Shown: piece by piece, positions 18,405 to 64,000 of the stretch
Numbering within the stretch: position 1 is the first letter of the stretch
Layout: each line of letters starts with the position of its first letter
DNA from: Candidatus Elulimicrobium sp.
Lineage (GTDB): Bacteria > Omnitrophota > Gorgyraeia > Zapsychrales > Fredricksoniimonadaceae
Reading direction: 5' to 3'
Assembly: GCA_020720365.1 (NCBI GenBank)
Contig: DYOU01000001.1
Location: 32,459-96,458, forward strand
DNA: 64,000 nt
Notes under the pieces: model-generated
Databases searched by the model: none
Told to the model about the DNA's origin: nothing
Seen by the model: the letters and a program-made list of their open reading frames with translations, nothing else
Program-made: the position numbers and the translations under genes

Positions 18405-19511
18405 GTGATTCAACCGCTTTCTGTGTATGTCCATATTCCTTTTTGTAAAAAGAAATGTCCCTATTGTTCGTTCGCAGTGGCTGTTGGCCAAGGGCATTAT
18501 GAGAAAGATTATTTAGCCGCGATCGATCGTGAGGCCATGTCGTATGGGGCTCGGGTTTCTACAGTTTATATTGGCGGCGGCACCCCGTCATGTTTGTCTC
18601 AGGAAGGGGTGGAGTATTTGTTCGCAAGTATCTTTCAGCGGTTTACAGTAGTTGAGAATGTTGAAATTTCTTTTGAAGTGAATCCTGACAGCATAGATCG
18701 CAAGAAGGCCGCGTTGTTAAAGAAAGCCGGAGTGAATCGTATCAGCCTCGGCCTGCAATCTCTGGACGATGATGCGTTGGTATTATTGGGGCGGACACAC
18801 TCTGCTGATGATGCGTTGCGGGCATTGGGGATTTTACGTGAAGCCGGTTTTGATAATATTAATCTTGATTTCATGTATGGTTATCCCGGGCAGAGTCGAG
18901 AGGGCGTAAGGAAAGATCTCTATCGTGTTTTGGCGCTGGGCTGTGAGCATTTGTCATTGTACGCGCTTAACATTGAAGAGCGCAGCCTTTTTTTTGCCCG
19001 GCGCGTGGAGGTAGATAATGACGCGCAAGGTGAGCTTTATGGAGAAGTTTGCGGGCAGGCAGAGGCTGCCGGTGTTTATCAATATGAGGTGAGTAATTTT
19101 TCCCGCCCGGGCTATGAGTCCCGTCATAATTCAAACTACTGGCAGGGAGGCGAATATGCGGGCCTGGGCCTGTCGGCTCATTCGCATATAGCCGGAGAGC
19201 GGTTCTGGAACGCCGCGGCATTGCCGGAGTATTTACAGCTAATGAAAGTGTCTGGAACGGCCAGGGTCGGCGGAGAGCGGCTTTCAGGCCCCGAGAAACT
19301 TGTTGAAGAATTCCTTTTCGCCCTTAGAATGAATAAAGGCTGCGACCTGGGAGCGCTGGAAATAAGGTTTGGTTCTGAAATGCCGATGGAGAAGAAAGAA
19401 ACCCTGGAAAGTTTGATCGAAATGGGCTTGCTTGAGGAAGAGGGCATGCTGATCCGGGCGACACCTCGGGGACGCTTGCTTCTCGATGAGATCGCGGCTA
19501 GGATTATTTAG
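18405..19511 (+). CDS. hemW: Radical SAM heme chaperone HemW (HemN-like, oxygen-independent coproporphyrinogen-III oxidase family)
   Basis: VYVHIPFCKKKCPYCSFA (CxxxCxxC), GGGTPS; 368 aa, GTG start. Confidence 0.8.
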   Translation: MIQPLSVYVHIPFCKKKCPYCSFAVAVGQGHYEKDYLAAIDREAMSYGARVSTVYIGGGTPSCLSQEGVEYLFASIFQRFTVVENVEISFEVNPDSIDRKKAALLKKAGVNRISLGLQSLDDDALVLLGRTHSADDALRALGILREAGFDNINLDFMYGYPGQSREGVRKDLYRVLALGCEHLSLYALNIEERSLFFARRVEVDNDAQGELYGEVCGQAEAAGVYQYEVSNFSRPGYESRHNSNYWQGGEYAGLGLSAHSHIAGERFWNAAALPEYLQLMKVSGTARVGGERLSGPEKLVEEFLFALRMNKGCDLGALEIRFGSEMPMEKKETLESLIEMGLLEEEGMLIRATPRGRLLLDEIAARII

Positions 19512-20807: not shown

Positions 20808-21203
20808 ATGAAAAAGATATGGACAGGTTGTTTGATGGCGGTATTGGTTTCATCGGTGGCATTGGCCCAGGGTGCGTATGACATCAAGGAAATGACGCCG
20901 GCAGTCAAGTCGGCGCTGGAAAGCCGTAAGGCCCGCTTTACTGAATTGAAAGCGCTGAAAGCACAGGGGTCCGTGGGCGAGAATAATCGTGGATATGTTC
21001 AGGCCTTGAGCGACGCGGCTGAAGTTAAAGCGTTGGTTAAAGCCGAGAATGTGGACCGCAAGTTTGTTTATGAAGCGATCATCGAGCAGAACGGGCTGGA
21101 TGCCGGTGTTCTGGAGACTGTTGAAAAAGTATTTGCCCGTGTTCAGCGGGAAAAAGCCGGCGGCGGTGAAAAAGTTCAGGATGAGGCCGGTGGCTGGAAT
21201 TAA
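20808..21203 (+). CDS. ydbL: YdbL-family periplasmic protein (DUF1318)
   Basis: Signal peptide; LKAQGSVGENNRGYVQAL matches the YdbL signature (AKAQGLVGEQ.NGYL). Confidence 0.65.
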   Translation: MKKIWTGCLMAVLVSSVALAQGAYDIKEMTPAVKSALESRKARFTELKALKAQGSVGENNRGYVQALSDAAEVKALVKAENVDRKFVYEAIIEQNGLDAGVLETVEKVFARVQREKAGGGEKVQDEAGGWN

Positions 21204-22279
21204 TTTTTACGGTATCTGCCTGCGATCGTTGTGGACTGGTCAAAGAATTTAAATAATGCTTCTCCGACCAGTTCTTTGTACGGCGGAGTTATTTTGAGTG
21301 TCGCCAGGATCTTCTTGGCTTTGGTGATACGGGTATCCACTGCTTCCAGAGCGTAGTGCAGGCTTCCGGCCTTGATCACCAGTGCTTTTATGGCTTCCTG
21401 GTCGGTCAGGTTCTTTTTGGTTTTCAGGAATATCCGGGTCATGGCCGTCAGGTCCCGGCCTTTCAGACCGGCGTAGGCATGCACGATCAAAAGCGTTTTC
21501 TTTTGTTCATCCAGGTCGCTCAGGATCGATTTTCCAATCGCCTCTTCTGTTTCAAATAAACCGATAATATCATCCTGGATCTGGAAAGCCTGGCCAATGC
21601 AAAGGCCGAAGGCGGCAAGTTTAGGGATTTCGCTCTTAGGGGCGCCGGCCAGGATAGCGCCTGTGACCAGCGGGCAATCGAAGGTGTAGCGAGCTGTCTT
21701 GAGTGAATAATTCAGAAAGACGTCTTCTTCTTTAATATTCTTTAGTTCGTCTACGCCGTGAACAGTATCGACGAATTCGCCCATGGCCGTGAAAGCGGCG
21801 GTTTGAATAAAATATTTCAGCGCGGCTTCTTTACGCTGGGGATCTTCTTTGATCGACAGGAAGGCGTCGATCGCAAGGGCGTAGACAATATCGCCGGCGA
21901 TAATGGCAAGATCGACCCCCAATTTATTCGGGTTAGCGCACGGGACGGTCGCATTGAGGACGCGGTGCATGGTCGGTTTACCGCGCCGCAGGTCAGCGCA
22001 GTCAATAATATCGTCGTGGATCAGCATAAAATTATGCAGGAACTCGATACAAGTAGAGGCGTTATACAGTGAGCGAGAGGGTTTTTTCCCTTTGGGTGAA
22101 TAGCCCAGATATCCCAGAAGCAGCAGGATCGGGCGGATGCGTTTGCCTTCGCGCAAGGAGAATTCCCGGATACTTTTGAATAGCAGCGGATCGACCAGAT
22201 GCAGTTTGTAATCTTTAGCAACATGGTCAAGAAAAAGGCCGATGCTGATATCAATTTCTTTCTTGAAGGTCGTAAGCAT
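21200..22279 (-). CDS. Polyprenyl diphosphate synthase (trans-isoprenyl diphosphate synthase; IspA/IspB/GGPPS family)
   Basis: First and second Asp-rich motifs LIHDDIID and QIQDDIIG; 359 aa. Convergent 4-nt overlap with ydbL. Confidence 0.85.
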   Translation of the reverse strand: MLTTFKKEIDISIGLFLDHVAKDYKLHLVDPLLFKSIREFSLREGKRIRPILLLLGYLGYSPKGKKPSRSLYNASTCIEFLHNFMLIHDDIIDCADLRRGKPTMHRVLNATVPCANPNKLGVDLAIIAGDIVYALAIDAFLSIKEDPQRKEAALKYFIQTAAFTAMGEFVDTVHGVDELKNIKEEDVFLNYSLKTARYTFDCPLVTGAILAGAPKSEIPKLAAFGLCIGQAFQIQDDIIGLFETEEAIGKSILSDLDEQKKTLLIVHAYAGLKGRDLTAMTRIFLKTKKNLTDQEAIKALVIKAGSLHYALEAVDTRITKAKKILATLKITPPYKELVGEALFKFFDQSTTIAGRYRKN

Positions 22280-52642: not shown

Positions 52643-53572
52643 GTGAGCAGGGACACTCTCGTTAGTGTAGTCATTCCTACCTGCGGCCGAAATGATTATT
52701 ATATTTCTTGTATTCAGTCGCTTCTTCAGCAGGCGCATTCCTTCTTAGATATTATTGTGGTGGAGAATTCAGGGGATCTGGCTCTTGAGGGGAAGGCCCT
52801 GGTGCTTTGCCCGGCGGCAAGGGTTGTTCAGGCTCCGCAGGGATCATCGTATTGCGATCTAATGAACACAGGGATCGGGTTAAGCCGTGGTGAGCATATT
52901 CTTTGCCTGAATGATGATGTAACGCTTGATCCGGCGTTTCTTGAGAATGCGTTGAAAGGTTTTACGCTGGATCCTCGCATAGGGATGGTCACAGGCAAGG
53001 TGTTAAGGCAGGATCGAACGACGCTGGATACGACAGGTTTGTTCCTGGGTATTTGCAGGACAGCACAAGAAAGAGGGTATGGGCAGGCGGACCGCGGGCA
53101 ATTCCAGAGGGAGGGGTTTATTTTTGGCGTGTGTGGGGCGGCTGCTTTTTATCGTAAGACGATGCTTGATGAGATCAGGGAAGGTCAAGATTGGTTTGAT
53201 CCTCGTTACCGGTTCTTTTATGAAGACCTTGATATTGCATGGAGAGCGCAGAGAAGAGGTTGGAACGCTTACTACATACCTGATGCGGTGGCGTATCATG
53301 TGCGCGGAGGTTCTATCCGTGGCAACGGAGGGCAGGGGAAGCCATTTGCCCGGAAATATTTAAGTGATGAAATGCATGCAGCCTTGATCCGGAACCGATA
53401 CAGGACAATCATGAAGAATGAAACGTTGGGCGGGCTTATCCTTCATTTGATCCCGATCATCCTGTATGAGCTTTGGGCATGGGCCTATATTATTTTCTTC
53501 AGGCCGAATGTTGTGAGGGTATTTGTTGCGGAGCTTTGTTCAGTAAAAGGCCTAGCAGAATACACCAGATAA
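52643..53572 (+). CDS. Family 2 glycosyltransferase (rhamnosyl/galactosyl-transferase-like GT2)
   Basis: VSVVIPTCGRNDY, LNDDV (DxD) motifs; 309 aa. Confidence 0.75.
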   Translation: MSRDTLVSVVIPTCGRNDYYISCIQSLLQQAHSFLDIIVVENSGDLALEGKALVLCPAARVVQAPQGSSYCDLMNTGIGLSRGEHILCLNDDVTLDPAFLENALKGFTLDPRIGMVTGKVLRQDRTTLDTTGLFLGICRTAQERGYGQADRGQFQREGFIFGVCGAAAFYRKTMLDEIREGQDWFDPRYRFFYEDLDIAWRAQRRGWNAYYIPDAVAYHVRGGSIRGNGGQGKPFARKYLSDEMHAALIRNRYRTIMKNETLGGLILHLIPIILYELWAWAYIIFFRPNVVRVFVAELCSVKGLAEYTR

Positions 53573-54662
53573 AACATGTTTCCGGAAAGAAGAATGTAAA
53601 GTCGATGCAGTTATGGAGAAGAAAGGCCAGTGATCCGCATAGCAGCCCTGCCGTCACAGGTTTGTCCGCGGCTGTTTCCAGGGCACGAAATCCTGAGCGG
53701 ATAAGTGTTGTTATCAGAAATATAAAAGAAGCGAAACCCGCCAGGCCTGTTTCTGCCCATAGCTGAAGAAAGTTGTTATGCGCATAGCGGGCGTTGATCA
53801 GGTCAAGATGGCCGAGCCCGATCCCGAACAAGAGATGTTCCTTGATGATCAGGGCTGTCTGCAGCCAATAACTTAAACGCATTCGCATGGAGTAGTCTGG
53901 CTGGAAATGTTGGAATTGGGATGATGTTCGGAGGGCAAAGATGGCCGCTGCCAGAGTGAATAGCCCGATCAGCAGTACGGTTATAAGGAGCGTAATGGTG
54001 CTGTCTTTTTCTTTCTTTTGTTTGAACGCGAAGAAAATAGCCGCGGCAGCCAGTAAACAGACGATCGCTCCGATAGATTTGGAGAGCAGAAGGGCGAAAA
54101 ACAGCGGCAGGACGACCCAGGCATTGTCTTTCAGTGTAAGGGCAAGAGGAATGATCATAATGAGGTATCCCGCGAGTGTATTGGGAGTAATAAAAGGTGT
54201 AAACACCCTTTGCTGGGCAATGAAGTTACGGGCAACCGGATCAACGGTCTTTGTTTCATTCAGATAGTTTTTAATATTCTGGAATCCGCTGAAAAACTGA
54301 TTAAGATCCAGGAAGCTGATGAAGACCGCCGTCAGAATAAGGGTTATGATGACGGTGTTCTTTTGATCTTCTGCCAAAGACCGGCAAACGAAGAACAGCA
54401 GAATGCCATTCAGATATTGCAACAGGGTTAAAGCAGAGAGCAGCTTGTTGTGAGAGGGGATTAATGAGAATAAAAGAGCGGCTATGAATAACAGGACTGC
54501 CGTTGTCAATCTTCGATCGTCCCATAAAGGTGTTTCCTGAATGAATATCCAGCTGGCCAGAAAAGTGGCAAGCGCGATAGAATGCATCAGGTTGAACTCA
54601 GGGAAGGCTGTTGAGCAGATGAACGGACGGATAATAATCAGAAGTAATAGCAGAATAAACAT
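53499..54662 (-). CDS. O-antigen ligase/Wzy-like polytopic membrane protein (Wzy_C-type)
   Basis: ~10 hydrophobic helices; pattern with conserved R/H-containing periplasmic loop region (YAHNNFLQLWAETG). 3' end overlaps the convergent GT2 gene. Confidence 0.55.
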   Translation of the reverse strand: MFILLLLLIIIRPFICSTAFPEFNLMHSIALATFLASWIFIQETPLWDDRRLTTAVLLFIAALLFSLIPSHNKLLSALTLLQYLNGILLFFVCRSLAEDQKNTVIITLILTAVFISFLDLNQFFSGFQNIKNYLNETKTVDPVARNFIAQQRVFTPFITPNTLAGYLIMIIPLALTLKDNAWVVLPLFFALLLSKSIGAIVCLLAAAAIFFAFKQKKEKDSTITLLITVLLIGLFTLAAAIFALRTSSQFQHFQPDYSMRMRLSYWLQTALIIKEHLLFGIGLGHLDLINARYAHNNFLQLWAETGLAGFASFIFLITTLIRSGFRALETAADKPVTAGLLCGSLAFLLHNCIDFTFFFPETCFIWCILLGLLLNKAPQQIPSQHSA

Positions 54663-54747
54663 GAATTTAAGTATACAATATCTTTAAGTTGTTTCCTATA
54701 ACATCACAATATTTTCAATGATTAATGGATCATTCAAGGATGAATTA

Positions 54748-54912
54748 ATGACATGGCTGCTGATGTTCTTCTGATCATTTGCCCTGTTTGGGCTGTTGAT
54801 TTACCTTCTTCAGGCCTGCTTATATCGCGGCTTATTTAGAGAAGAAGGGTGTTCCATGCGACATTCTGGATTTAAACCTTGTTATGTACGAGTCTAAATT
54901 CATGTAATGTGA
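54748..54912 (+). pseudogene. Frameshifted N-terminal remnant of a B12-binding-domain radical SAM gene
   Basis: Frame a: MAADVLLIICPVWAVDLPSSGLL... stops. +2 frame continues PAYIAAYLEKKGVPCDILDLNLVMYESKFM*, the canonical start of a B12-binding domain (LP.LGLAY.AAYL.K.G..V...D). No downstream domain; a related intact gene starts at 62090. Confidence 0.55.
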
Positions 54913-55204
54913 CGGCGTCAACTGATCCTGAGATCTTTCCGGAAAAGTTCGGGATAATATTTCCAGAAGGGAAAAGCCCGTGCGAGTATTGGGAAAGTTC
55001 AGACGGGACGAATACGTTTGATGTCAGAAAGCGCAGGGTTTTGGAGATCTTTCAGTTATTAAAAGAACTGAAAGTTACAACATATTATGTAGGTATTTAT
55101 GATGGAGATAGTCCTCTCTAAGAGGCTTGTCGGAAAGGTAGAATGTGTGGCTGGTATAAGTATTTGTGCGGATATTGTTAGATAGGCCAGTCCGGTCAGG
55201 AATA

Positions 55205-56365
55205 ATGCCCGAAAAAAAGATTAATGTACTTTATGTGATCACCAAGCTTGAATTAGGCGGCGCTCAAACGCATGCGCTCGATCTGATTCGGAGTATTGAC
55301 CAGAACAAGTTTAATGTATTTCTTTTCTCTGCGCGGGAAGGGCTGTTAGTTGAGCAGGCGTTGAATATTCCCGGATTGAATTTTTATCGCTCGTCTTTTC
55401 TGGAACGGCGTATTCATCCGGTTAAAGATGTTTGTACGGTTATTTCTTTATATTTCTATATCAAAAAGCATAAGATTGATTTCATTCATACACATAGTTC
55501 AAAGGCTGGTATTTTAGGAAGGTTCGCGGCGAAAGCGGCGGGATTGAGAGGCATTGTTCATACCGTTCATGGTTGGAGTTTTCATGAATATCAGTCGAAG
55601 GTTGTGTATAATATCTTTCTTTATTTAGAGCGACTTTGCGCGCGATTTACTGATAGACTGATCGTTGTTTCTCTGCTTGACCGGGAGACGGGTGTTCAGC
55701 TGGGGGTAGGGCCGCCAGAAAAGTATAGACTCATTCGATGCGGGTTGGATGCAGAGCGTTTTAGTGTCAAAGGGCCGCTCGCGAGTGCGCGGGCAGCATT
55801 GGGGTTATCTGAAACTGATCTTGTGGTTGGGATGGTGGCCTGTTTCAAGCCGCAGAAAGATCCCTTAAGTTTTGTTCGATTAGCTGCGGCTGTCAGAGAA
55901 AAGCTCCCGCATGTTAGATTTTTCTTGGTTGGTGACGGAGTCTTGCGGGGGGAGATCGCGCGTTTGATTGGAAGTTTTGGCCTTCAGGAGAATATTCTTT
56001 TATTGGGATGGCGCCGGGATATGCCGTTGATTTATGCGGCCATGGACCTGTGCGTATTGACGTCATTATGGGAGGGCTTGCCGATCGCTATCATGGAGGC
56101 GATGGCGTCAGGCGTTCCCGTGATTGTTACGGATACCGGAGGTGTTCGGGATGTTGTCCGGGATGGAGAAACGGGCTATTTGGTTAAAGCCGCGGATGTT
56201 GAGGCTATGCGGGATAAAGTGATATTGTTATTGAAAGATCCGGAGTTAAGGGAAGATATAGCGGGAAGAGCCGTGGAATGGATCAGGAATGATCTGTTTT
56301 CTTTAAGGCATATGATGCATAAAGTTGAGGGCTTGTATCAGGAGCTTTGGATTAAGCATGGGTAA
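55205..56365 (+). CDS. Family 4 (GT-B) glycosyltransferase
   Basis: EGLPIAIMEAMASGVPVIVTDTGG (E-x7-E region) typical of GT4; 386 aa. Confidence 0.8.
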   Translation: MPEKKINVLYVITKLELGGAQTHALDLIRSIDQNKFNVFLFSAREGLLVEQALNIPGLNFYRSSFLERRIHPVKDVCTVISLYFYIKKHKIDFIHTHSSKAGILGRFAAKAAGLRGIVHTVHGWSFHEYQSKVVYNIFLYLERLCARFTDRLIVVSLLDRETGVQLGVGPPEKYRLIRCGLDAERFSVKGPLASARAALGLSETDLVVGMVACFKPQKDPLSFVRLAAAVREKLPHVRFFLVGDGVLRGEIARLIGSFGLQENILLLGWRRDMPLIYAAMDLCVLTSLWEGLPIAIMEAMASGVPVIVTDTGGVRDVVRDGETGYLVKAADVEAMRDKVILLLKDPELREDIAGRAVEWIRNDLFSLRHMMHKVEGLYQELWIKHG

Positions 56366-57341
56366 ATATTTATTTCTTTTCTCTTCAGTGTTTGTTTTTA
56401 GCCTGTTTGTCATGTGGGTTTTACGTAAGTTTGCGTTTAAGACCAAGGTTTTAGTTTCAAAGAATATTGCGTTGATCGGCGGAATAGGTATTGCTATCGG
56501 GCTGGCTTTCTCGTCAGGTCTTGGTTTTCTTGTTTTTGGCCTTGATCCGCGTCAGATCGTGCCTGTTATCGGGATATCTCTGGTCATGCTGTTATTTGGA
56601 GTCATGGATGATCTGCGAGAGGCCTCAGTTCTTCAAAAGATTCTATTACAGTGTATCGGAGCGGTATTGCTGATCAGTATCGATATCAGGACGCATATTG
56701 TGTACCTGGATTACTGGAGTAATTGCGTTATTACTTTTTTTTGGATTCTGGGGATTACGAACGCGTTGAATTTGTTGGATACAATGGATGGGTTAAGTTC
56801 GGGAGTTGCGTTCATTGCGACGATCGCATTGTTTGTTCTTTCACTCTTTTATCCTGATATTAATATTCAAATACTGGCGTTAGGTTTATCGGCCGCTATT
56901 CTCGGGTTCCTTGTTTTTAATATCCCTCCGGCAACGATTTATTTAGGAAATGCCGGGAGTCACTTTTTAGGCTTTCTTCTGGCGGCGCTTACTTTGATGG
57001 TGAGTTATACTGTCCTGGACAGTTCAGTGGCCCTGGTGTGTCCCATTATTATTCTTTGGGTTCCTTTGCTTGAAACGGTGTGTTTGATCTATTTTCGTTT
57101 AAGAAAAAGCATTATTCCATTTAATAAAAGTAATGATCATATCGCCTTCAGATTGATGGCTTTAGGGTGTACGCGTCACGGTGTATTATTGATCATGCTG
57201 GGATTGGCGTTGTTTTGCGCGCTTTGCGGGATAATGATTGGCCGGATGAATAATATTATTGGGGCGGTAATTGTGATGGCCGTTGTTATCGTGAGTTTTT
57301 TCTTTTTTAAAGTGCTGACGAAAGCCGAGTGCCATGGCTAA
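56358..57341 (+). CDS. Polyprenyl-phosphate N-acetylhexosamine-1-phosphate transferase (WecA/WbpL/MraY family, initiating enzyme)
   Basis: NALNLLDTMDGLSSG (NxxNxxDGxDGL) motif, ~10 TM helices; 327 aa; overlaps upstream GT4 stop. Confidence 0.8.
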   Translation: MGKYLFLFSSVFVFSLFVMWVLRKFAFKTKVLVSKNIALIGGIGIAIGLAFSSGLGFLVFGLDPRQIVPVIGISLVMLLFGVMDDLREASVLQKILLQCIGAVLLISIDIRTHIVYLDYWSNCVITFFWILGITNALNLLDTMDGLSSGVAFIATIALFVLSLFYPDINIQILALGLSAAILGFLVFNIPPATIYLGNAGSHFLGFLLAALTLMVSYTVLDSSVALVCPIIILWVPLLETVCLIYFRLRKSIIPFNKSNDHIAFRLMALGCTRHGVLLIMLGLALFCALCGIMIGRMNNIIGAVIVMAVVIVSFFFFKVLTKAECHG

Positions 57342-58632
57342 TCAGGAAGTTATTATTTTAGGCGCGGGCCTTGCCGGATTAAGTGCGGCGTATCATCTGC
57401 AGAAAGAAGGAGTTGCCTGTCAGATCTTTGAGAAAGAGGCTGAGGTTGGAGGATTGTGCCGTTCAAAGAAGCTGGATGGATTTACATTTGATTATGATGG
57501 CCATTTGTTGCATTTTCGGCATCAGTATACGTTTGATCTGGTCAAGTCATTGCTTAAGGGAAACTTTATAAAACATAATCGGAGCGCATGGGTATATTCG
57601 CACGAACGTTTTATTCCCTATCCGTTTCAGACGAATCTTGTTAATCTTCCTGTTGATGTCGCGCAAGAGTGCCTTGCAGGTTTTCTGGCAGCAAACAAGA
57701 ATGGCCGTGTAAAGGCGAATGAAAGTTTTTTGCATTGGATTGATCGGACTTCTGGAAAGGGGATCGCCCGGCATTTTATGGTGCCGTATAATACCAAGTT
57801 CTGGACCATCTCTCCCCGACGAATGGTGTGTGATTGGCTTGACGGGTTTGTGCCTCAGCCGACGGTCGCACAGGTTATGGATGGAGCAACGAAAGAAGGT
57901 GGTCAGCCGTTAGGGTATAATGCTTGTTTCTGGTATCCTGAAAAAGGCGGTATTGAACAACTTTCTTTAGCGATGAAGTCGCGCATCGAGCATATTCATA
58001 CGGGGTTTGAAGTTAAAACGATTGATCTGAAAGCGCGGCAGATCGAATTTGCCAATGGTGTAAAGAAAAAGTATCATCATTTGATCTCAACGATCCCTTT
58101 GCCTCAATTGCCCGGGATTGTGAAGGGGCTTCCGAAAGATGTGCGGGAAGCGTTTAGCAAGCTGCGCTGGAACTCGGTGTATAATTTGAATCTGGGATTG
58201 AGTCAAAAGAAGCGTTGTGAAAGTCACTGGATCTATTTTCCCCAGAAAGAATTGGTTTTTTTTCGTGTCGGGTTCTTTCATAATTTTTCATCCGGCCTTG
58301 TTCCTGAGGGGAAGACTTCTATATATGCTGAAGTTGCGTATTGTAAACAAAAACCTGTTGATAAGAAGAAGGTCGCCGGTCGCATTGAGAAGGACCTGAA
58401 AAAAGTCGGATTGCTTTCTGATGAAGATGAGGTTTTGGTACGTGATAGTAATGATATCCAGTGCGCATATCCTATTTATGACAGAAATTACAAAGCTTCC
58501 AGGAGTCGTATCCTGGGTTTCTTGTCCAAACATCATATTCTGACTTGCGGGCGCTATGGCAGTTGGCGGTATATGTCTATGGAGGATGTTTTATTGGAGG
58601 GCAGGGAGTTTTCCGGAAAGCAGTTTGGCTGA
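57334..58632 (+). CDS. FAD/NAD(P)-binding oxidoreductase (amine-oxidase/UDP-galactopyranose-mutase-like fold)
   Basis: VIILGAGLAGLSAAYHL...EKEAEVGG dinucleotide-binding motif; 432 aa; in glycan cluster. Confidence 0.65.
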   Translation: MANQEVIILGAGLAGLSAAYHLQKEGVACQIFEKEAEVGGLCRSKKLDGFTFDYDGHLLHFRHQYTFDLVKSLLKGNFIKHNRSAWVYSHERFIPYPFQTNLVNLPVDVAQECLAGFLAANKNGRVKANESFLHWIDRTSGKGIARHFMVPYNTKFWTISPRRMVCDWLDGFVPQPTVAQVMDGATKEGGQPLGYNACFWYPEKGGIEQLSLAMKSRIEHIHTGFEVKTIDLKARQIEFANGVKKKYHHLISTIPLPQLPGIVKGLPKDVREAFSKLRWNSVYNLNLGLSQKKRCESHWIYFPQKELVFFRVGFFHNFSSGLVPEGKTSIYAEVAYCKQKPVDKKKVAGRIEKDLKKVGLLSDEDEVLVRDSNDIQCAYPIYDRNYKASRSRILGFLSKHHILTCGRYGSWRYMSMEDVLLEGREFSGKQFG

Positions 58633-58667
58633 TTAGTTGTGATAATATTTTCTTGGTAATTTTAACC

Positions 58668-59486
58668 ATGATGAAATTATGGAATAGTTTTAAAAGAATG
58701 AAATTCTGTCAATTTCTCTCTGCCGTGGCTGGGTTTCAACAAAGAGAAGTTTTGAGGAATCTGGTCAATAAGAATTTGAAAGCCAAATATGCCGGATCCA
58801 TGCTGGGCATGTTGTGGGCGTTCATTAATCCTGTTTTACTGGCATGTATAGTAGGATTCATATTTACAAACATCCTTAAAGTGAATACGCCGAATTATTA
58901 TTTATACATTTTATCAGGGATGCTGCCCTGGACATTCTTTGCGACATCGATACAGGAAGCTTCAGTATCTATCCAGGGGCATGCGAGTCTTTTGAAACAA
59001 TTCCCTTTAGCCAGGATCTTTATTCCGGTTGCGATCGTTATATCAAATTTTATTCTTTTGTTATTTAGTCTGACGATTTTACTTCCCCTTTTCCTTATTG
59101 TTGATTTGAAAGTTATCACCTTGTTGCCATTATTAGTGTTTGCTCTGATCATATTATTGTTGTTCACGCTCGGATTATCTTTGATGTTCGCGGCCATATG
59201 CGTTGAATGGCGTGACGTGCAGCAGGCATTAAACACATTGCTGGTTTATTGGTTATGGTTGACGCCGATATTTTATAGTGCACAGATGGTCCCAAGGGAT
59301 TATAAAATTCTTTTAGACATTAATCCTATTAATTTTTTCTTGATCTTGTACAGGAATTCTTTATTTGATGTAAAAACTCCTTCTTTAGGTGTTTTGGGGA
59401 TCCCTGTGATCATGGCATTGGGAGCCTTATGGTGCGGCATTGTTTTGTTTCATAAGAAAGAAGGGGGGTTTTTAAAAAGAATATGA
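58668..59486 (+). CDS. ABC-2 type polysaccharide export permease (Wzm/KpsM-like)
   Basis: Six hydrophobic segments, ABC-2 signature region. In-frame ATG 58668 gives ~272 aa, typical for Wzm; ORF-track start 58545 is probably too far upstream. Confidence 0.75.
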   Translation: MMKLWNSFKRMKFCQFLSAVAGFQQREVLRNLVNKNLKAKYAGSMLGMLWAFINPVLLACIVGFIFTNILKVNTPNYYLYILSGMLPWTFFATSIQEASVSIQGHASLLKQFPLARIFIPVAIVISNFILLLFSLTILLPLFLIVDLKVITLLPLLVFALIILLLFTLGLSLMFAAICVEWRDVQQALNTLLVYWLWLTPIFYSAQMVPRDYKILLDINPINFFLILYRNSLFDVKTPSLGVLGIPVIMALGALWCGIVLFHKKEGGFLKRI

Positions 59487-61786
59487 AGATGGAAACAGAT
59501 ATTGCCATTCAATTAAAGAATGTTTTTGAGAATTATGAAATTGAAATAAAGACGGATGAAAAAGTGATCCGTGAGAGATATTCAGTTCTGAATGATATTT
59601 CATTGACGGTAAAAAAAGGTGAATGCCTGGCTGTCATTGGAGCTAACGGAGCGGGCAAGTCAACGATTTTGAGGATTATTGCGGGTCTCCTGAAGCCTGA
59701 AAAAGGTGAAGTTACGGTGAACGGCCGGGTGGGCAGCCTCCTGGATCTGGGAGCGGGATTTCATCCCGAGTTGACAGGCAGGGATAATTTGCGTTTGAAC
59801 GCGAGTCTGTACAATTTTAACCGGAATGAGTTTGAAGCAAAGTATGAAGAGATCCTGAAGTTCGCTGATATTGGCAAGTTTATTGATGTGCCGGTGCGTT
59901 GCTATTCGCAAGGCATGTATGTGCGTTTAGCGTTCAGTTTGGCTATTCATGTTGATCCGGACATTCTTTTGATCGATGATTGCCTTTCTGTTGGGGATGA
60001 TAATTTTCAGTTAAAAAGCATGGATAAAGCGCTGGAGTTAAAGAGCAAGAATAAAACCATTATCTTTGTTACACATAATTTCAGTTTGGCAAGACAGTTG
60101 TGTGAACGTTGTATTTATATTAAAGATCATCAGATCGTTCAAGATGCCGCTCTGGAAGAGGTTGTGTCAACGTATTTGGCACCGTCCAAGATCGATAAAG
60201 AGCAGTATCATTATTTAAGCGCCAAGATCCATGAAATAGAAAGTTACGAGGAAAGTCAGGAAGCAAAGCGGCAACAGCAGGAACAAGAACGAAGAAGGTC
60301 TGAAGAAGAGGCGGCATTCAATGAAATGATGGGGCGTCGGCAGTTGGAAGAAGAAATTTTCCAGAAAGCGCTGAGTGAGCGGCGCAAAGCCGAGGAGATT
60401 GCGTGGGGGCAGGCCGTGGCAGCACGGCGCGCGGAAGAAGAAGAGTTATGGAGAAATGAAGTGGCAGCGCGGCGCGAGGCGGAAAGAGATCGGGAGTTAT
60501 TAAAGAAGAATCACCAGAGAACGAAAGAGGTTTCTTTGTATGCGGGAGCGCTTAAGTTGGCCGTTGCTCCTTCACAAATCAGATTGTTATGTGATCATGT
60601 GAATGTGATACGCAATGCGGGCATTCAGACGCTCTTTCTAAAAGATAATATATTGGTTTGTTCCGCAACGGCCGAATGGCGGATAAAGAAGATCTCTGAA
60701 GCGCAGATCGCCTGTTTCTTAAGGTGGCCGGGATTGGAGGGCGTGGTACAGCGCTGGCATTTCATTCGTTTGGAGAATGGGGTTACAGGGCTTTGCATTT
60801 CCATGAGAGTTGCGGCATCCGTTTGTATTGAGAATGAACGTGTGGAATTCTGGCCGAATACAACAGGTGGAGTTCTGGAGGATGCTCAATGGGGCAATAA
60901 GTCCAGGTTTGTATTTTTGGGGGATCAGGGTAAAGTGCAGGTTGAAACATATCAAGATGATTGTGTTTCCGGTTCGGTTGATCAGGATGATGGTCGTCGT
61001 GTACCATATTTCTTAAAAACATGTGCTGATACTATTCTGAGTCCGGAACGAGCATCCTATCGGAAAGTTGTCTTTAATGGCGGTATCTTTCTTGGAGACA
61101 AGAGCGCTGAAAAGCGTCCGATGGTTCTGGAAAGAAGAATCTTGAGATCAGAAAATCTTGCGGTTGATTTTCAGGAGGGATGTTGTCAGATCATTTTGGG
61201 TGAGAAAGTAATAACAACCGGATTAGGTCTTTATACATCTGTTTTCTCACACGGTCTTTGGCGGGACTCAACGCAGGCTAAATGGAAGGTGGTATCTTTT
61301 TCAGGGAATAAGTTGACTGTAAGAGGGGCTTGGCCATGGATGCCTGTTATTCAGGAATGGCAGGTTGAGATCGCAGGGCAAAACAGGATCTTGTTAAATG
61401 TAAGAATGAAGATATTAAAAGATATCATGATCGATATGCAGGAGACGGTGTTGATGTTGCCGCAGGAGTATTCATCATGGAGCGATGGGAATGTATTTCA
61501 AAGATTCTCAGAAAATATGACCAGTGATGATTTCTTCAGACTTTGTTCCTTGATAAAGGAAGCGGATGGATCGGCTTCTGTTTCTGTTAAAGGAGAGGGT
61601 TTGCCGGAGATCAATTTTAAACCAGGTTTTATACAGGGGCATCGAATGATCGTTGAGAATTCAGCGCATATTTACAAGACGCAGGCTCGTCTTATGCATT
61701 GTTTAAAGGGATATCAGAAGGAAAAGGGAAGCGTTAAGGCCGGGGAAATGGATTTTTTTAAAGGGATTCTTACTATTAATAATTAG
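59483..61786 (+). CDS. ABC transporter ATP-binding protein (Wzt-like) with ~110-aa Glu/Arg/Ala-rich coiled coil and ~400-aa C-terminal extension made of two related beta-rich (Trp-rich) domains
   Basis: Walker A GANGAGKST, signature YSQGMYVRLAF, Walker B ILLIDD within first ~250 aa. Residues ~260-360 EEAAFNEMMGRRQLEEEIFQKALSERRKAEE... Then duplicated region (AEWRIKKIS...LRWPGLEG...QRWHF vs AKWKVVSFS...GAWPWMPVIQEWQV). 767 aa total. Confidence 0.8.
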   Translation: MKMETDIAIQLKNVFENYEIEIKTDEKVIRERYSVLNDISLTVKKGECLAVIGANGAGKSTILRIIAGLLKPEKGEVTVNGRVGSLLDLGAGFHPELTGRDNLRLNASLYNFNRNEFEAKYEEILKFADIGKFIDVPVRCYSQGMYVRLAFSLAIHVDPDILLIDDCLSVGDDNFQLKSMDKALELKSKNKTIIFVTHNFSLARQLCERCIYIKDHQIVQDAALEEVVSTYLAPSKIDKEQYHYLSAKIHEIESYEESQEAKRQQQEQERRRSEEEAAFNEMMGRRQLEEEIFQKALSERRKAEEIAWGQAVAARRAEEEELWRNEVAARREAERDRELLKKNHQRTKEVSLYAGALKLAVAPSQIRLLCDHVNVIRNAGIQTLFLKDNILVCSATAEWRIKKISEAQIACFLRWPGLEGVVQRWHFIRLENGVTGLCISMRVAASVCIENERVEFWPNTTGGVLEDAQWGNKSRFVFLGDQGKVQVETYQDDCVSGSVDQDDGRRVPYFLKTCADTILSPERASYRKVVFNGGIFLGDKSAEKRPMVLERRILRSENLAVDFQEGCCQIILGEKVITTGLGLYTSVFSHGLWRDSTQAKWKVVSFSGNKLTVRGAWPWMPVIQEWQVEIAGQNRILLNVRMKILKDIMIDMQETVLMLPQEYSSWSDGNVFQRFSENMTSDDFFRLCSLIKEADGSASVSVKGEGLPEINFKPGFIQGHRMIVENSAHIYKTQARLMHCLKGYQKEKGSVKAGEMDFFKGILTINN

Positions 61787-61796
61787 GAGGGCAGGT

Positions 61797-62093
61797 ATGA
61801 GGACGGCATTAATGTTAAAGAACTCAGCGCATTTTATTTTGTTGGCAGGTATGATTATGGCCATTTATTTCTTTCCTGTTAATACGTTTCAGTTCTGGTG
61901 TGTGATCGGCCTGACGGGAGTATTGTGGTTGATCGTAAGGCTTTTGGCTAATATAGGCCAGCTTGTATATGAAATGCGTCATGAGTCAGGTCGGTCTTTG
62001 GCGAATATGGAGCGTTCTCTCCATCAGATCAATGCTACGTTGCAGGAAATGAGGGATTCTATTGATTCCAAAGGAGCCAAGGACGCTGCATGA
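61797..62093 (+). CDS. Small 2-TM membrane protein (98 aa) translationally coupled between wzt and the radical SAM gene
   Basis: Hydrophobic segments FILLAGMIMAIYFF and FWCVIGLTGVLWLIV; stop overlaps the next ATG (ATGA). Confidence 0.5.
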   Translation: MRTALMLKNSAHFILLAGMIMAIYFFPVNTFQFWCVIGLTGVLWLIVRLLANIGQLVYEMRHESGRSLANMERSLHQINATLQEMRDSIDSKGAKDAA

Positions 62094-64000
62094 AGATCGT
62101 ATTGGTTAATTTACCATGGAAAAGAAAAGGCTTATGGGGTGTGCGGGCCGGTTCAAGGTGGCCGCATATTAAGAGTGCATTGGAGAAGGATTATTCCCCC
62201 TTTCCGTTCTTTATGGCTTATGCGGGGTCTTTGTTAAAACGGGAAGGGTTTGAGGTTGAGGTGATCGATTCTTTGGCCCAACAATTACCTCTTGGCCGAT
62301 TACTTAAGCTTTTGAATGATAGTCAACCGGACTTATTAGTTGCGGAAACATCAACGCCATCGTTGGCGAATGATCTGGCTATCCTGCAGAAACTGCCGCA
62401 AGGGTTGGCGGTGGCTTTATGCGGACCGGAGATCAATATTCGTGACGGACAATTTCTGGCGAGACATCCGCGTATTACATACGCGTTTGTGGGGGAGTAT
62501 GAATATACACTTCTGGAATTGGCGCAACGTTTAAAAGCCAGGCAGGATCTGGCCGGTTTATGTGGTTTGATCTATATGAATAACGGGGTGTGTCAAACAA
62601 ATCCGGCGAGGCCTTTGCGCGAGGATCTGGATGATCTGCCATGGCCTTTAAGGGATGGGCTGCCGATGGAAAAGTATAAGGATACTCCCGGAGGGATCCC
62701 TTCCCCCAGTGTTCAGATGTGGTCGTCACGGGGGTGTCCGTATCATTGTTTATTTTGCAGTTGGCCGCAGTTGATGTATCAAAGTCATCGCTACAGGACG
62801 CGTAATGTGATCGATATAGTGGATGAGATGGAATATCTTGTGACTGTAAAGGGTTTCAAGTCGGTTTATTTTGATGATGATACGATGAATATTGGCAAGT
62901 TACGCATGATGGTATTGGCGAATGAGATTAAACGCAGAGATCTGAATGTGCCTTGGGCGATGATGGCGCGGGCGGATTTGATGGAAGAGGATGTTTTGGA
63001 AAATCTGCGCGCGGCCGGATTAACGGCTGTGAAATATGGAGTAGAGTCAGGCAATCAAACGCTTGTTGATCGGAGTAATAAGAAACTGGACCTTCAGAAA
63101 CTTGAACGTATGGTTCGTTTTACCAAATCCCTTGGAATTAAAACGCATTTAACGTTTACTTTCGGGCTTCCGGGAGAGACGCAAGCGACGATTCAACAGA
63201 CAATTGACTTTGCAAAAGAGCTGGATCCTGACTCACTTCAGTTTTCGATCACAACGGCATTCCCGGGAACACAATATTTTAATGAATTGGAAACATGCGG
63301 GCATATTGTTTCAAAAGACCTTAAAGATTATGACGGGAGTTCCAGGGCGATGCTGCGAACGGATTCTTTAAGCGCCGGAGATTTGCGGAGAGCGAAACAG
63401 CTGGCGGATAAAGCCTGGCAGATGCATGTATGGAGGACCAGACCGCAGGCAAGAACCACAGAAGGTTTGCTTGGGAGATCTATCAGGAACATTAAGGATT
63501 ACGGTTTTCAGTCGTTTTTATCAAGAGGAAGTTTGTTTCTCAGGCATCGGTTTCGGATGCCAAAGTTTGAGCGGATCAATAAATTCTTGAGTTTTGACTG
63601 GCGAATAACGTTGGCACGCCCATTGGGTCAGTGGGAGAAAATAAAGAAGAATGTGTTGAATTTAATGGGTGTGCAGCATGGTTCGTATGCTTTTAAAGGG
63701 CCGGACTGTGTCCAGATCGATCTCACCAGTAATTGTAATAATAATTGTGTGAGTTGCTGGTGTAACTCTCCACTCCTGCAGGCGCGGGCGTATAAAGGCG
63801 TGAAAAAGTACAAGACATTGCCGACACAGCTTGTTCTTTCTTTGATTGATGACCTTGTCGAGATGGGTACAGGCGAGCTTTATTTCTCCGGCGGAGGAGA
63901 GCCTTTTATGCATCCGGATATCATGACTATTATGGCTCATGCCAAAGCGCGCGGCGCATATTGTTGTATTAATACGAACTTTACACTTGTTAATGAAGAA
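62090..64000 (+). CDS. B12-binding-domain radical SAM protein fused to a second radical SAM (MoaA/SPASM-like) domain; 3' end beyond window
   Basis: Manual translation: MKIVLVNLPW...FMAYAGSLLKREGFEVEVID (B12-binding region). First CxxxCxxC: GCPYHCLFCSW (~aa 215). Then TIM-barrel region, then second core QIDLTSNCNNNCVSCW plus FSGGGEPFMHPD (~aa 545-600). No stop through position 64000. Not in the ORF track because it lacks an in-window stop. Confidence 0.75.
   Translation, partial: MKIVLVNLPWKRKGLWGVRAGSRWPHIKSALEKDYSPFPFFMAYAGSLLKREGFEVEVIDSLAQQLPLGRLLKLLNDSQPDLLVAETSTPSLANDLAILQKLPQGLAVALCGPEINIRDGQFLARHPRITYAFVGEYEYTLLELAQRLKARQDLAGLCGLIYMNNGVCQTNPARPLREDLDDLPWPLRDGLPMEKYKDTPGGIPSPSVQMWSSRGCPYHCLFCSWPQLMYQSHRYRTRNVIDIVDEMEYLVTVKGFKSVYFDDDTMNIGKLRMMVLANEIKRRDLNVPWAMMARADLMEEDVLENLRAAGLTAVKYGVESGNQTLVDRSNKKLDLQKLERMVRFTKSLGIKTHLTFTFGLPGETQATIQQTIDFAKELDPDSLQFSITTAFPGTQYFNELETCGHIVSKDLKDYDGSSRAMLRTDSLSAGDLRRAKQLADKAWQMHVWRTRPQARTTEGLLGRSIRNIKDYGFQSFLSRGSLFLRHRFRMPKFERINKFLSFDWRITLARPLGQWEKIKKNVLNLMGVQHGSYAFKGPDCVQIDLTSNCNNNCVSCWCNSPLLQARAYKGVKKYKTLPTQLVLSLIDDLVEMGTGELYFSGGGEPFMHPDIMTIMAHAKARGAYCCINTNFTLVNEE

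Follow-up and report, generated by a model that had tools for sequence, protein, structure and literature searches.

Why should the ATPase of a polysaccharide exporter carry a long helical stalk and a C-terminal region of ~415 aa, and why should its gene be followed by those for a 98-aa membrane protein and an enzyme with two radical S-adenosylmethionine (SAM) cores? The question is raised by the end of a 64,000-nucleotide stretch of DNA (hereafter, the window) from Candidatus Elulimicrobium sp., a member of the Omnitrophota (GenBank assembly GCA_020720365.1, contig DYOU01000001.1, positions 32,459 to 96,458 of the forward strand). To our knowledge, Omnitrophota are an uncultured phylum of unknown surface chemistry. 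The ATPase is a Wzt protein, encoded next to its permease partner Wzm. On the basis of its Wzt-type nucleotide-binding domain (NBD) and of the neighboring genes, which encode Wzm, a WecA-like protein, GT2 and GT4 glycosyltransferases, and a Wzy_C protein, we consider that the locus is, on balance, probably the export-and-tailoring core of a polyprenol-linked glycan pathway that depends on a transporter of the ATP-binding cassette (ABC) type. In related loci, the type of domain that makes up the Wzt C-terminal region is fused to radical-SAM enzymes, which is strong Rosetta-stone evidence for a link between the exporter and these enzymes.

The initial annotation of the window, made from its letters only, had described a 767-aa Wzt with a ~110-aa Glu/Arg/Ala-rich helix between the NBD and the C-terminal region. 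This layout was upheld; the gene is one unbroken open reading frame (ORF), and the order NBD, helix, C-terminal region is the same in the orthologues, which excludes an assembly frameshift between the ABC domain and the extension. Pfam ABC_tran covers aa 36 to 168 (E 6e-21), and the NCBIfam TagH and Wzt models match with E values of 1e-49 to 1e-52, below their equivalog cutoffs. Structures of Aquifex aeolicus Wzt (6amx/7k2t/8dku) align to aa 27 to 232 (E 1e-53), with no match of the Aquifex sequence past residue 232 of the window protein. Its closest relationship to Wzt and TagH, together with the adjoining ABC-2 permease, identifies the NBD as belonging to the Wzt/TagH type. Hydropathy revealed no transmembrane or hydrophobic segment in Wzt or in the double radical-SAM protein, and Wzt is thus expected to be entirely cytoplasmic.

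The Wzt C-terminal region is Trp-rich, as 11 of its 422 residues are Trp and many of these are invariant. Judged from profile comparisons, it is a true tandem duplication, as had been proposed. The two halves align weakly by plain BLASTP (E 0.009), whereas profile-profile comparison with hhalign gave 97.4% probability and an E value of 1.1e-11 over 125 columns, and the hidden Markov model (HMM) of each half matches the other half (E 1e-7 and 1e-8). Also in agreement with the initial annotation, the region differs from the canonical Wzt carbohydrate-binding module (CBM), a jelly-roll of ~150 aa that directly adjoins the NBD; it matched neither Wzt_C PF14524 nor any other Pfam or NCBIfam model, and its predicted fold is different. 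An AlphaFold2 model built from 17 sequences (pLDDT 83, pTM 0.74) is all-beta with two lobes, and it superposes on galactose-mutarotase-like (GalM-like) supersandwich domains, structural neighbors with 5 to 11% identity. The region is accordingly predicted to consist of two ~200-aa GalM-like supersandwich domains. Invariant positions in the homologue alignment are mostly W, D, S, Q, and R, also Gly, and the former set would fit a sugar-binding site.

A profile search with this domain against 1.84 billion representative proteins retrieved 476 proteins (E<=1e-3), 127 of which reach E<=1e-30; in these proteins the type represented by the second half recurs as one to six stretches per protein. We compared its genomic settings in four context look-ups, two genome loci, and 80 metagenome loci, all annotated by BLAST and HMM searches. 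On the radical-SAM enzymes of sister loci, the domain lies at the N terminus of a B12-like half, between the two halves, at the C terminus, or on a protein like the 597-aa radical-SAM/SPASM enzyme that is encoded downstream of the double radical-SAM gene. Fusions within single chains include an NBD with five domain copies; an NBD with five domains and a radical-SAM/SPASM enzyme (P0199; 1856 aa); domain copies with a radical-SAM/SPASM enzyme (P0170); and a B12-radical-SAM plus radical-SAM/SPASM protein with one copy (P0061). The GalM-like domain is also joined to a PMT_2 GT-C glycosyltransferase (P0224, also L004 1-1699) and to a protein of the alkaline-phosphatase/sulfatase family (P0262; 791 aa). 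Domain HMMs detected no hidden copy in the radical-SAM proteins of the present locus. The link between radical-SAM chemistry and the Wzt C-terminal domains, which the initial annotation had put forward, therefore holds at the genomic level through fusions and synteny, whereas its specific form, a methyl cap, does not (see below).

Glycan binding is the most economical function for this domain. This putative role is suggested by the setting of the genes among those of glycan assembly, by a predicted fold that is associated with carbohydrates, by the occurrence of the domain in tandem arrays, and by its fusion to enzymes that handle glycans. It is unlikely, in our estimate, that the GalM-like domains are not glycan receptors at all but protein-protein scaffolds that hold the radical-SAM enzymes on the transporter, or catalysts of the epimerase or mutarotase kind. 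The fold does include aldose 1-epimerases as well as the P1 domain of YidC, which binds no sugar, and a docking module shared by many different partners of one cluster would show the same distribution. However, mutarotase (GalM) catalysis uses a His/Glu pair, and no such conserved pair stands out here, since Trp, Gly, Ser, Asp, Gln, and Arg account for most of the invariant positions. Arrays of three to five tandem copies are what one would expect of a binding module more than of a catalyst, and the domain is also fused to a GT-C glycosyltransferase and an alkaline-phosphatase-family protein. We therefore retain glycan recognition as the working function.

The double radical-SAM ORF starts at position 62090 and leaves the window after 637 codons. 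It was completed, and the genes 3′ of the window edge were read, from contig L001 (GCA_974330425.1; 133 kb), which is identical to the window except for 3 mismatches over 4518 nt; a Logan contig was also recovered by exact-protein look-up. The complete protein has 910 aa, with Pfam Radical_SAM at aa 213 to 375 and 545 to 715 and SPASM at aa 795 to 848, which substantiates the claim of two complete cores. The first core reads C216-x3-C220-x2-C223 and the second C549-x3-C553-x2-C556 followed by GGGEP, and both Cys triads are invariant across 54 homologues. An AlphaFold2 model from these 54 sequences (pLDDT 88.8 overall, pTM 0.55) predicts two well-folded enzymes joined by a helical linker of low confidence (aa 454 to 511; pLDDT 37 to 64 over aa 450 to 520), the position at which relatives hold an inserted GalM-like domain or a further B12-radical-SAM domain.

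The N-terminal half has the architecture of class B radical-SAM enzymes, that is, a Rossmann/B12-type domain followed by the CxxxCxxC core, although its B12-binding match (aa 42 to 144; 23 to 29 bits) is below the 32.1 cutoff. It aligns full-length to the HpnJ, BchE, and PhpK models. The best family match is HpnJ (positions 18 to 421 of 472; E 1.5e-67), with 228.5 bits against the 577.6 cutoff of the TIGR03471 equivalog, and the best structural match is AprD4 (6fd2; E 7e-28 by sequence, TM-score 0.80 and 24% identity by fold), followed by TsrM, MgmA, OxsB, CysS, and TokK as further fold neighbors. AprD4 is a sugar 1,2-diol dehydratase that has the same domain and binds no cobalamin (PMC12931638). 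HpnJ is a non-methylase with a proposed glucosamine ring contraction on lipid-linked glucosamine. Given these nearest relatives, we rejected a methyltransferase as the default reading of the N-terminal half, and the radical-SAM-installed methyl cap that the initial annotation had envisaged is left unsupported.

The C-terminal half combines CxxxCxxC with a SPASM domain (PF13186) whose score of 42.7 bits exceeds the cutoff of 21.5. Approximately five auxiliary Cys are conserved, namely C795 and C813 (Cx12Gx4C-like) and C868, C872, and probably C864 (Cx3Cx3C), compared with the canonical seven, so that the set appears closer to a reduced or twitch-like site. The NCBIfam SPASM families W_rSAM_matur, AhbD, and NirJ all match below cutoff. 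Fold neighbors are SuiB, SkfB, BlsE, DesII, anSME, and BtrN, and PqqE is also similar. Both halves thus have characterized relatives that act on sugars, HpnJ and AprD4 for the first and DesII and BlsE for the second. A polypeptide with two radical-SAM units had been called unusual, which is true among characterized enzymes but not of its occurrence in nature: more than 120 full-length homologues with 45 to 72% identity are among the matches listed, some of them 1150 to 1570 aa long with extra domains, and there are 393 metagenomic matches. The named sources among the homologues listed are Candidatus Omnitrophota/Omnitrophica, save one "PVC group bacterium" and one unclassified "bacterium". Apparent chains with three to four radical-SAM domains (ORF joins as predicted) occur in L089 (2234 aa), L058/L083 (1439 to 1442 and 1818 aa), L064 (1520 and 1509 aa), and L009 3555-7964 (1470 aa), in combinations such as four SPASM-type, three B12-type, or B12+B12+SPASM. 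Another Omnitrophota metagenome-assembled genome (GCA_043814605.1; L008 1-24212) has at least eight radical-SAM genes in a row, several of them with GalM-like domains, along with PMT_2 GT-C, GT4, GT2, carbamoyltransferase, and methyltransferase genes and no Wzm/Wzt within 10 kb.

These family assignments also bear on the substrate. A glycolipid or the head group of a membrane lipid (HpnJ/calditol-like or Hbs/Hgm-like), flipped by Wzm/Wzt in place of a long polysaccharide, strikes us as quite unlikely. The enzyme family closest to the N-terminal half, HpnJ, acts on lipid-linked glucosamine; membrane lipids are tailored by SPASM (Hbs) and B12 (Hgm, Grs) radical-SAM enzymes, of which Hbs has homologues in Omnitrophota; and a UbiA prenyltransferase gene and an AA_kinase gene lie just downstream on L001. 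These two genes are, however, on the opposite strand and were not seen in the other loci, whereas the cluster encodes a WecA-type enzyme, several glycosyltransferases, an O-antigen-ligase-like protein, and an NBD closest to O-antigen and teichoic-acid exporters. Furthermore, arrays of three to five binding domains suggest a polymeric ligand. Very unlikely is a cluster for a ribosomally synthesized and posttranslationally modified peptide (RiPP), in which B12-radical-SAM C-methyltransferases and SPASM maturases would modify a precursor peptide for ABC export. A RiPP C-methyltransferase subfamily is the best family match of the 791-aa downstream protein, the C-terminal half of the double enzyme matches PqqE, MftC, and sactipeptide and SuiB-like maturases, and ORFs of 51 to 54 aa occur in the cluster. 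Nonetheless, all maturase and C-methyltransferase matches are far below cutoff, the transporter, of the ABC-2/Wzt type, lacks a peptidase domain and any domain typical of RiPP exporters, the neighborhood is rich in glycosyltransferases, and the predicted fold of the accessory domain common to exporter and enzymes is associated with carbohydrates. Pfam detected no recognition-element domain, with no systematic search made for a precursor or recognition element. A lipid-linked polymer thus remains the preferred substrate.

The stalk that separates the NBD from the predicted binding domains (aa ~237 to 351) contains 24% E, 14% R, and 13% A, is ~20% hydrophobic and 46% charged, and has aromatics (Trp/Phe) spaced by 15 residues. 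In orthologous stalks the 15-residue period is strict and is interrupted now and then by a step of 22 residues; L006 has a 15-15-15-22 super-repeat across ~350 residues, and the stalks of L011 and L037 display a core-like pattern, L-x3-W-x2-A-x3-I. Among orthologues with NBDs ~70% identical, stalk length is 31 aa (L009), 121 to 177 aa, 245 aa (L011), or ~350 aa (L006). The sequence is compatible with a pentadecad-type coiled coil, and its low hydrophobicity would also fit a single ER/K helix. Tandem Repeats Finder detected no DNA repeat in the stalk of the window or of L006. In L011 (7835-8294), the stalk is encoded by a 45/90-nt tandem repeat of ~9 copies with 61 to 81% matches, a 45-nt unit that, as read from the DNA, would be a ready mechanism for changing stalk length. 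In L003, an assembly gap (a run of N) splits the wzt gene within the stalk region.

The spacer role proposed for the coiled coil in the initial annotation fits this length range, and stalk-less sister loci also exist. A rigid dimeric coiled-coil stalk could set the distance between the binding domains and the membrane, so that only chains of a set length, perhaps with a terminal mark made by the radical-SAM enzymes, would be captured and exported. Such a transporter-borne ruler is a refinement of the export-and-tailoring interpretation, not an alternative to it, and we advance it tentatively, as less likely than not. It is attractive and plausible given that the cluster yielded no further coiled-coil (WbdD/WbbB-like) protein and that stalk length varies so widely; the regular 15-residue repeat with a core-like pattern in some stalks and the repeat expansion in L011 agree with it. 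Known ABC-dependent systems have a coiled-coil ruler in the terminator protein and a Wzt CBM that reads the terminal cap (PMC11231755). Conversely, stalks that are 17 to 25% hydrophobic and 41 to 59% charged would also suit a linker with a passive role or one lone ER/K alpha-helix, the L009 stalk has only 31 residues, a sister group has three to five tandem domains and no stalk, and no terminator enzyme was identified in the cluster.

Comparison of loci revealed a recurring module that is present in dozens of them: (GT4, WecA, FAD protein), Wzm, long Wzt, a B12-like radical-SAM enzyme, further radical-SAM enzymes, GT4, and SGNH. The B12-like enzyme is either fused to a SPASM radical-SAM unit or followed by one as the next gene. 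The proposal that the trio works as a unit with the Wzm/Wzt exporter gains from the conserved order Wzm, long Wzt, 98-aa protein, double radical-SAM enzyme in 11 independent loci. In this group, to which the window belongs (type A; nine complete loci plus L003, with the assembly gap, and L052, which is partial), Wzt consists of NBD, helical stalk, and two domains, the 98-aa gene is always present (11/11), and the B12-like radical-SAM enzyme never has a GalM-like domain of its own (0/9). In type B (22 to 23 loci), the NBD is followed by a 12-residue linker and three to five domains, the 98-aa gene never occurs, and 17 of 21 loci have a B12-like radical-SAM enzyme with its own domain. Two loci of the stalk family are labelled otherwise than Omnitrophota, L010 (JBAZKW010000029.1) as Candidatus Margulisiibacteriota and P0002 as Planctomycetes bacterium RIFOXYD12_FULL_42_12; binning error, old taxonomy, or lateral transfer could account for these labels.

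As initially annotated, the 98-aa protein has two transmembrane segments by hydropathy (~5 to 31 and 31 to 57), and the protein is conserved in the orthologous loci. The two segments are followed by a conserved charged helix, QLVYEMRxxSxRxLxxxERSL...E.RD..D, and identity to three orthologues is 38 to 42%. No known family matched in Pfam or NCBIfam. The short loops, the N-terminal positive charges, and the charged C-terminal helix suggest that both termini are probably in the cytoplasm. The protein may be a lineage-specific accessory that probably tethers or couples the domain-less radical-SAM enzyme, or the stalk, to the membrane and the transporter.

The wider neighborhood (Table 1) corrects the layout first given to the cluster. 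The trio does not end it: on L001, the double radical-SAM gene is followed by genes for a 597-aa radical-SAM/SPASM protein and a 791-aa protein that combines B12-radical-SAM and SGNH/GDSL domains, then by a 51-aa ORF and a GT4 gene. The three genes had also been called translationally coupled; only the 98-aa and radical-SAM genes, and likewise wzm and wzt, overlap by 4 nt (ATGA), and wzt and the 98-aa gene are 10 nt apart with GGAGG inside the gap. Upstream of the genes listed in Table 1, the glycan cluster also contains a GT2 gene and two genes of short-chain dehydrogenase/reductase (SDR) epimerases/dehydratases, as annotated with Pfam and NCBIfam.

Table 1. Features of the glycan locus in the window (positions of the 64,000-nt stretch)
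Feature	Position	Strand	Evidence and context
Wzm, ABC-2-type permease partner of Wzt	58668-59486	+	Pfam ABC2_membrane E 3e-14; upstream of long Wzt in all related loci
Wzt, 767 aa, one unbroken ORF	59483-61786	+	ORF listing, translation
Wzt NBD, aa 1-236	59483-60190	+	ABC_tran
Wzt helical stalk, aa ~237-351	60191-60535	+	E/R/A-rich composition, 15-residue aromatic period
First GalM-like beta-sandwich domain of Wzt (predicted), aa 352-551	60536-61135	+	Predicted fold
Second GalM-like domain of Wzt (predicted), aa 552-767 plus stop codon	61136-61786	+	Archetype copy in representative search
98-aa membrane protein, two transmembrane segments plus charged helix	61797-62093	+	Hydropathy, orthologue alignment
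Double radical-SAM protein, N-terminal half, aa 1-450: Rossmann/B12-binding-like domain plus first radical-SAM core	62090-63439	+	Pfam, HpnJ model, AprD4 match
Double radical-SAM protein, interdomain helical linker, aa ~451-525	63440-63664	+	AlphaFold2, low confidence
Double radical-SAM protein, C-terminal half, aa 526-637 of 910, cut by window end; SPASM beyond edge	63665-64000	+	Translation, L001
GT4	55166-56365	+	Pfam/NCBIfam; precedes Wzm in many related loci
WecA/MraY-family initiating transferase	56325-57341	+	Pfam/NCBIfam; precedes Wzm in many related loci
FAD-dependent amine-oxidase/PRK07208-like protein, 432 aa	57334-58632	+	Directly 5′ of Wzm here and in many related loci
Wzy_C/O-antigen-ligase-like membrane protein	53499-54662	-	Pfam Wzy_C; also in L003, L011, L072

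Several further observations concern the surroundings of the cluster. The 432-aa FAD protein, a member of the conserved module, is distantly similar to UDP-galactopyranose mutase. Short ORFs between radical-SAM and glycosyltransferase genes have 51 aa on L001 (19572-19727) and 54 aa on L004 (12737-12901). The UbiA-family gene and the adjoining AA_kinase-family gene lie directly after the cluster on the minus strand (L001 20923-22304), and the UbiA-family protein has weak matches to archaeal-type GGGP/DGGGP-like prenyltransferases. The remainder of the window is housekeeping, e.g., purine biosynthesis at 23 to 32 kb; a 272-aa plus 969-aa gene pair at 24 to 28 kb, considered as a second long-Wzt pair, was rejected since it belongs to purine biosynthesis. 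Two minus-strand genes at 18405-19511 and 21200-22279, one for a HemN-like radical-SAM protein and one for a polyprenyl synthetase, also lie amid housekeeping genes far upstream and probably have nothing to do with the glycan cluster. The GC skew is strongly positive across the entire window (0.17 to 0.30), with nearly all long ORFs on the plus strand. G+C content falls from ~0.47-0.53 in positions 1 to 54000 to 0.41-0.46 in 54001 to 64000, the glycan cluster. This drop may be the sign of a surface-glycan cassette that is hypervariable or exchanged horizontally; such cassettes were reported for Omnitrophota in a 2026 preprint.

These elements can be assembled into a putative pathway. The WecA-type enzyme and the GT2/GT4 glycosyltransferases would build a polymer at the membrane, on its cytoplasmic side. 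The 910-aa protein, the two downstream radical-SAM enzymes, the GT4, and the SGNH domain would most likely modify sugars of this lipid-linked polymer before export. Enzymes that act on nucleotide sugars rarely need binding modules, and polymer-acting enzymes often do; the presence of the GalM-like domain on radical-SAM enzymes suggests that these act on the lipid-linked polymer. The two predicted GalM-like domains of Wzt most likely bind the glycan, in the role of the canonical CBM with a different fold, and the ~110-residue helix with its 15-residue repeat (~16 nm if fully helical) would hold them off the membrane.

Several points weigh against this pathway. The fold assignment of the Wzt domains is a predicted model with neighbors at very low identity, and the list of fold matches includes non-sugar contexts, namely a subunit of the chloroplast NDH complex, a PBCV-1 capsid protein, and the P1 domain of YidC. 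All radical-SAM family matches are far below curated cutoffs, and SPASM and B12 radical-SAM enzymes are mostly peptide or lipid modifiers. Finally, the stalk, the 98-aa gene, and the domain-less radical-SAM enzyme vary together cleanly, but this probably marks one clade instead of independent events.

With these reservations, the module hints that a glycan of the cell surface is tailored and sized in a manner not yet studied. As a broader possibility, about which we are more doubtful than about the export-and-tailoring core itself, Omnitrophota and relatives may use an undescribed glycan route in which batteries of radical-SAM enzymes tailor a lipid-linked polysaccharide after polymerization, by ring rearrangement, deoxygenation, epimerization, or C-methylation. 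Enzymes and exporter would have one new cytoplasmic glycan-recognition module in common, and the transporter would read chain length or export competence by means of a coiled-coil stalk of variable length. If the proposed export-and-tailoring core holds, the 476 representative proteins would form a new carbohydrate-binding domain family for which Pfam has no model, and the locus would likely be the first in which radical-SAM enzymes tailor a glycan that is polymeric and lipid-linked. Hundreds of Omnitrophota proteins annotated only as "radical SAM protein" would further gain a function, and the stalks of 31 to ~350 residues would offer a natural length series for studying how exporters sense polymer length. 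We found no description of this architecture in the literature on Omnitrophota, Wzt, radical SAM, and O-antigen/polysaccharide, where a 2019 Glycobiology survey of Wzt-linked CBMs could list such proteins.

How does this module compare with known systems? In every characterized ABC transporter-dependent glycan system that we know of, the Wzt CBM is a small jelly-roll and the ruler is in a separate terminator protein. The novelty here would lie in the predicted fold of the binding module, in arrays or a stalk inside the transporter, and in a module common to multi-domain radical-SAM enzymes. Like the Wzm-Wzt systems of Escherichia coli O9a and Klebsiella O3 and O12, the locus combines an ABC-2 permease with a Wzt NBD that has a C-terminal extension, here with predicted carbohydrate binding, as well as WecA-type initiation, a polyprenol-linked polymer made in the cytoplasm, and an extended helical element of variable length. 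Unlike in those systems, the Wzt extension consists of two predicted mutarotase-like domains without PF14524, and radical-SAM genes occupy the position of the terminator, with no kinase, methyltransferase, or Kdo-transferase terminator evident. The helix also differs in place from the WbdD/WbbB ruler, which is inside the chain-terminating enzyme; that of the window, an extended helical repeat as well, sits in the transporter ATPase between the NBD and the predicted binding domains at its distal end. Aquifex aeolicus Wzm-Wzt (PDB 6oih, 7k2t, 8dku) is the closest solved relative of the window NBD, but its Wzt has 404 aa with a compact carbohydrate-binding domain right after the NBD.

On the enzyme side, the N-terminal half aligns to both HpnJ and AprD4, two enzymes that act on sugar rings and are not methylases. 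It differs from them in being fused to a second radical-SAM/SPASM enzyme, and its score, far below the cutoff, indicates that it is not an HpnJ orthologue; nor are there hopanoid genes nearby. The C-terminal half resembles SPASM/twitch enzymes (anSME, SuiB, PqqE, BtrN, DesII, BlsE) in its CxxxCxxC, GGGEP, and above-cutoff SPASM domain, whereas it has ~5 auxiliary Cys, reaches no curated equivalog cutoff, and sits behind a B12-like radical-SAM unit. The predicted binding domain has 5 to 11% identity to supersandwich domains of aldose 1-epimerases, beta-galactosidase (domain 5), and YidC (P1) and to the accessory domains of GH38, GH97, and GH94; unlike these, it is cytoplasmic and occurs in one to six tandem copies on an ABC ATPase or on radical-SAM enzymes. 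Collectively, these comparisons describe an ABC transporter-dependent glycan assembly system with a Wzt-borne recognition module that departs from its characterized counterparts in four ways: the predicted fold of the module, the position of the helix, the radical-SAM enzymes in place of terminators, and one module common to the exporter and the enzymes.

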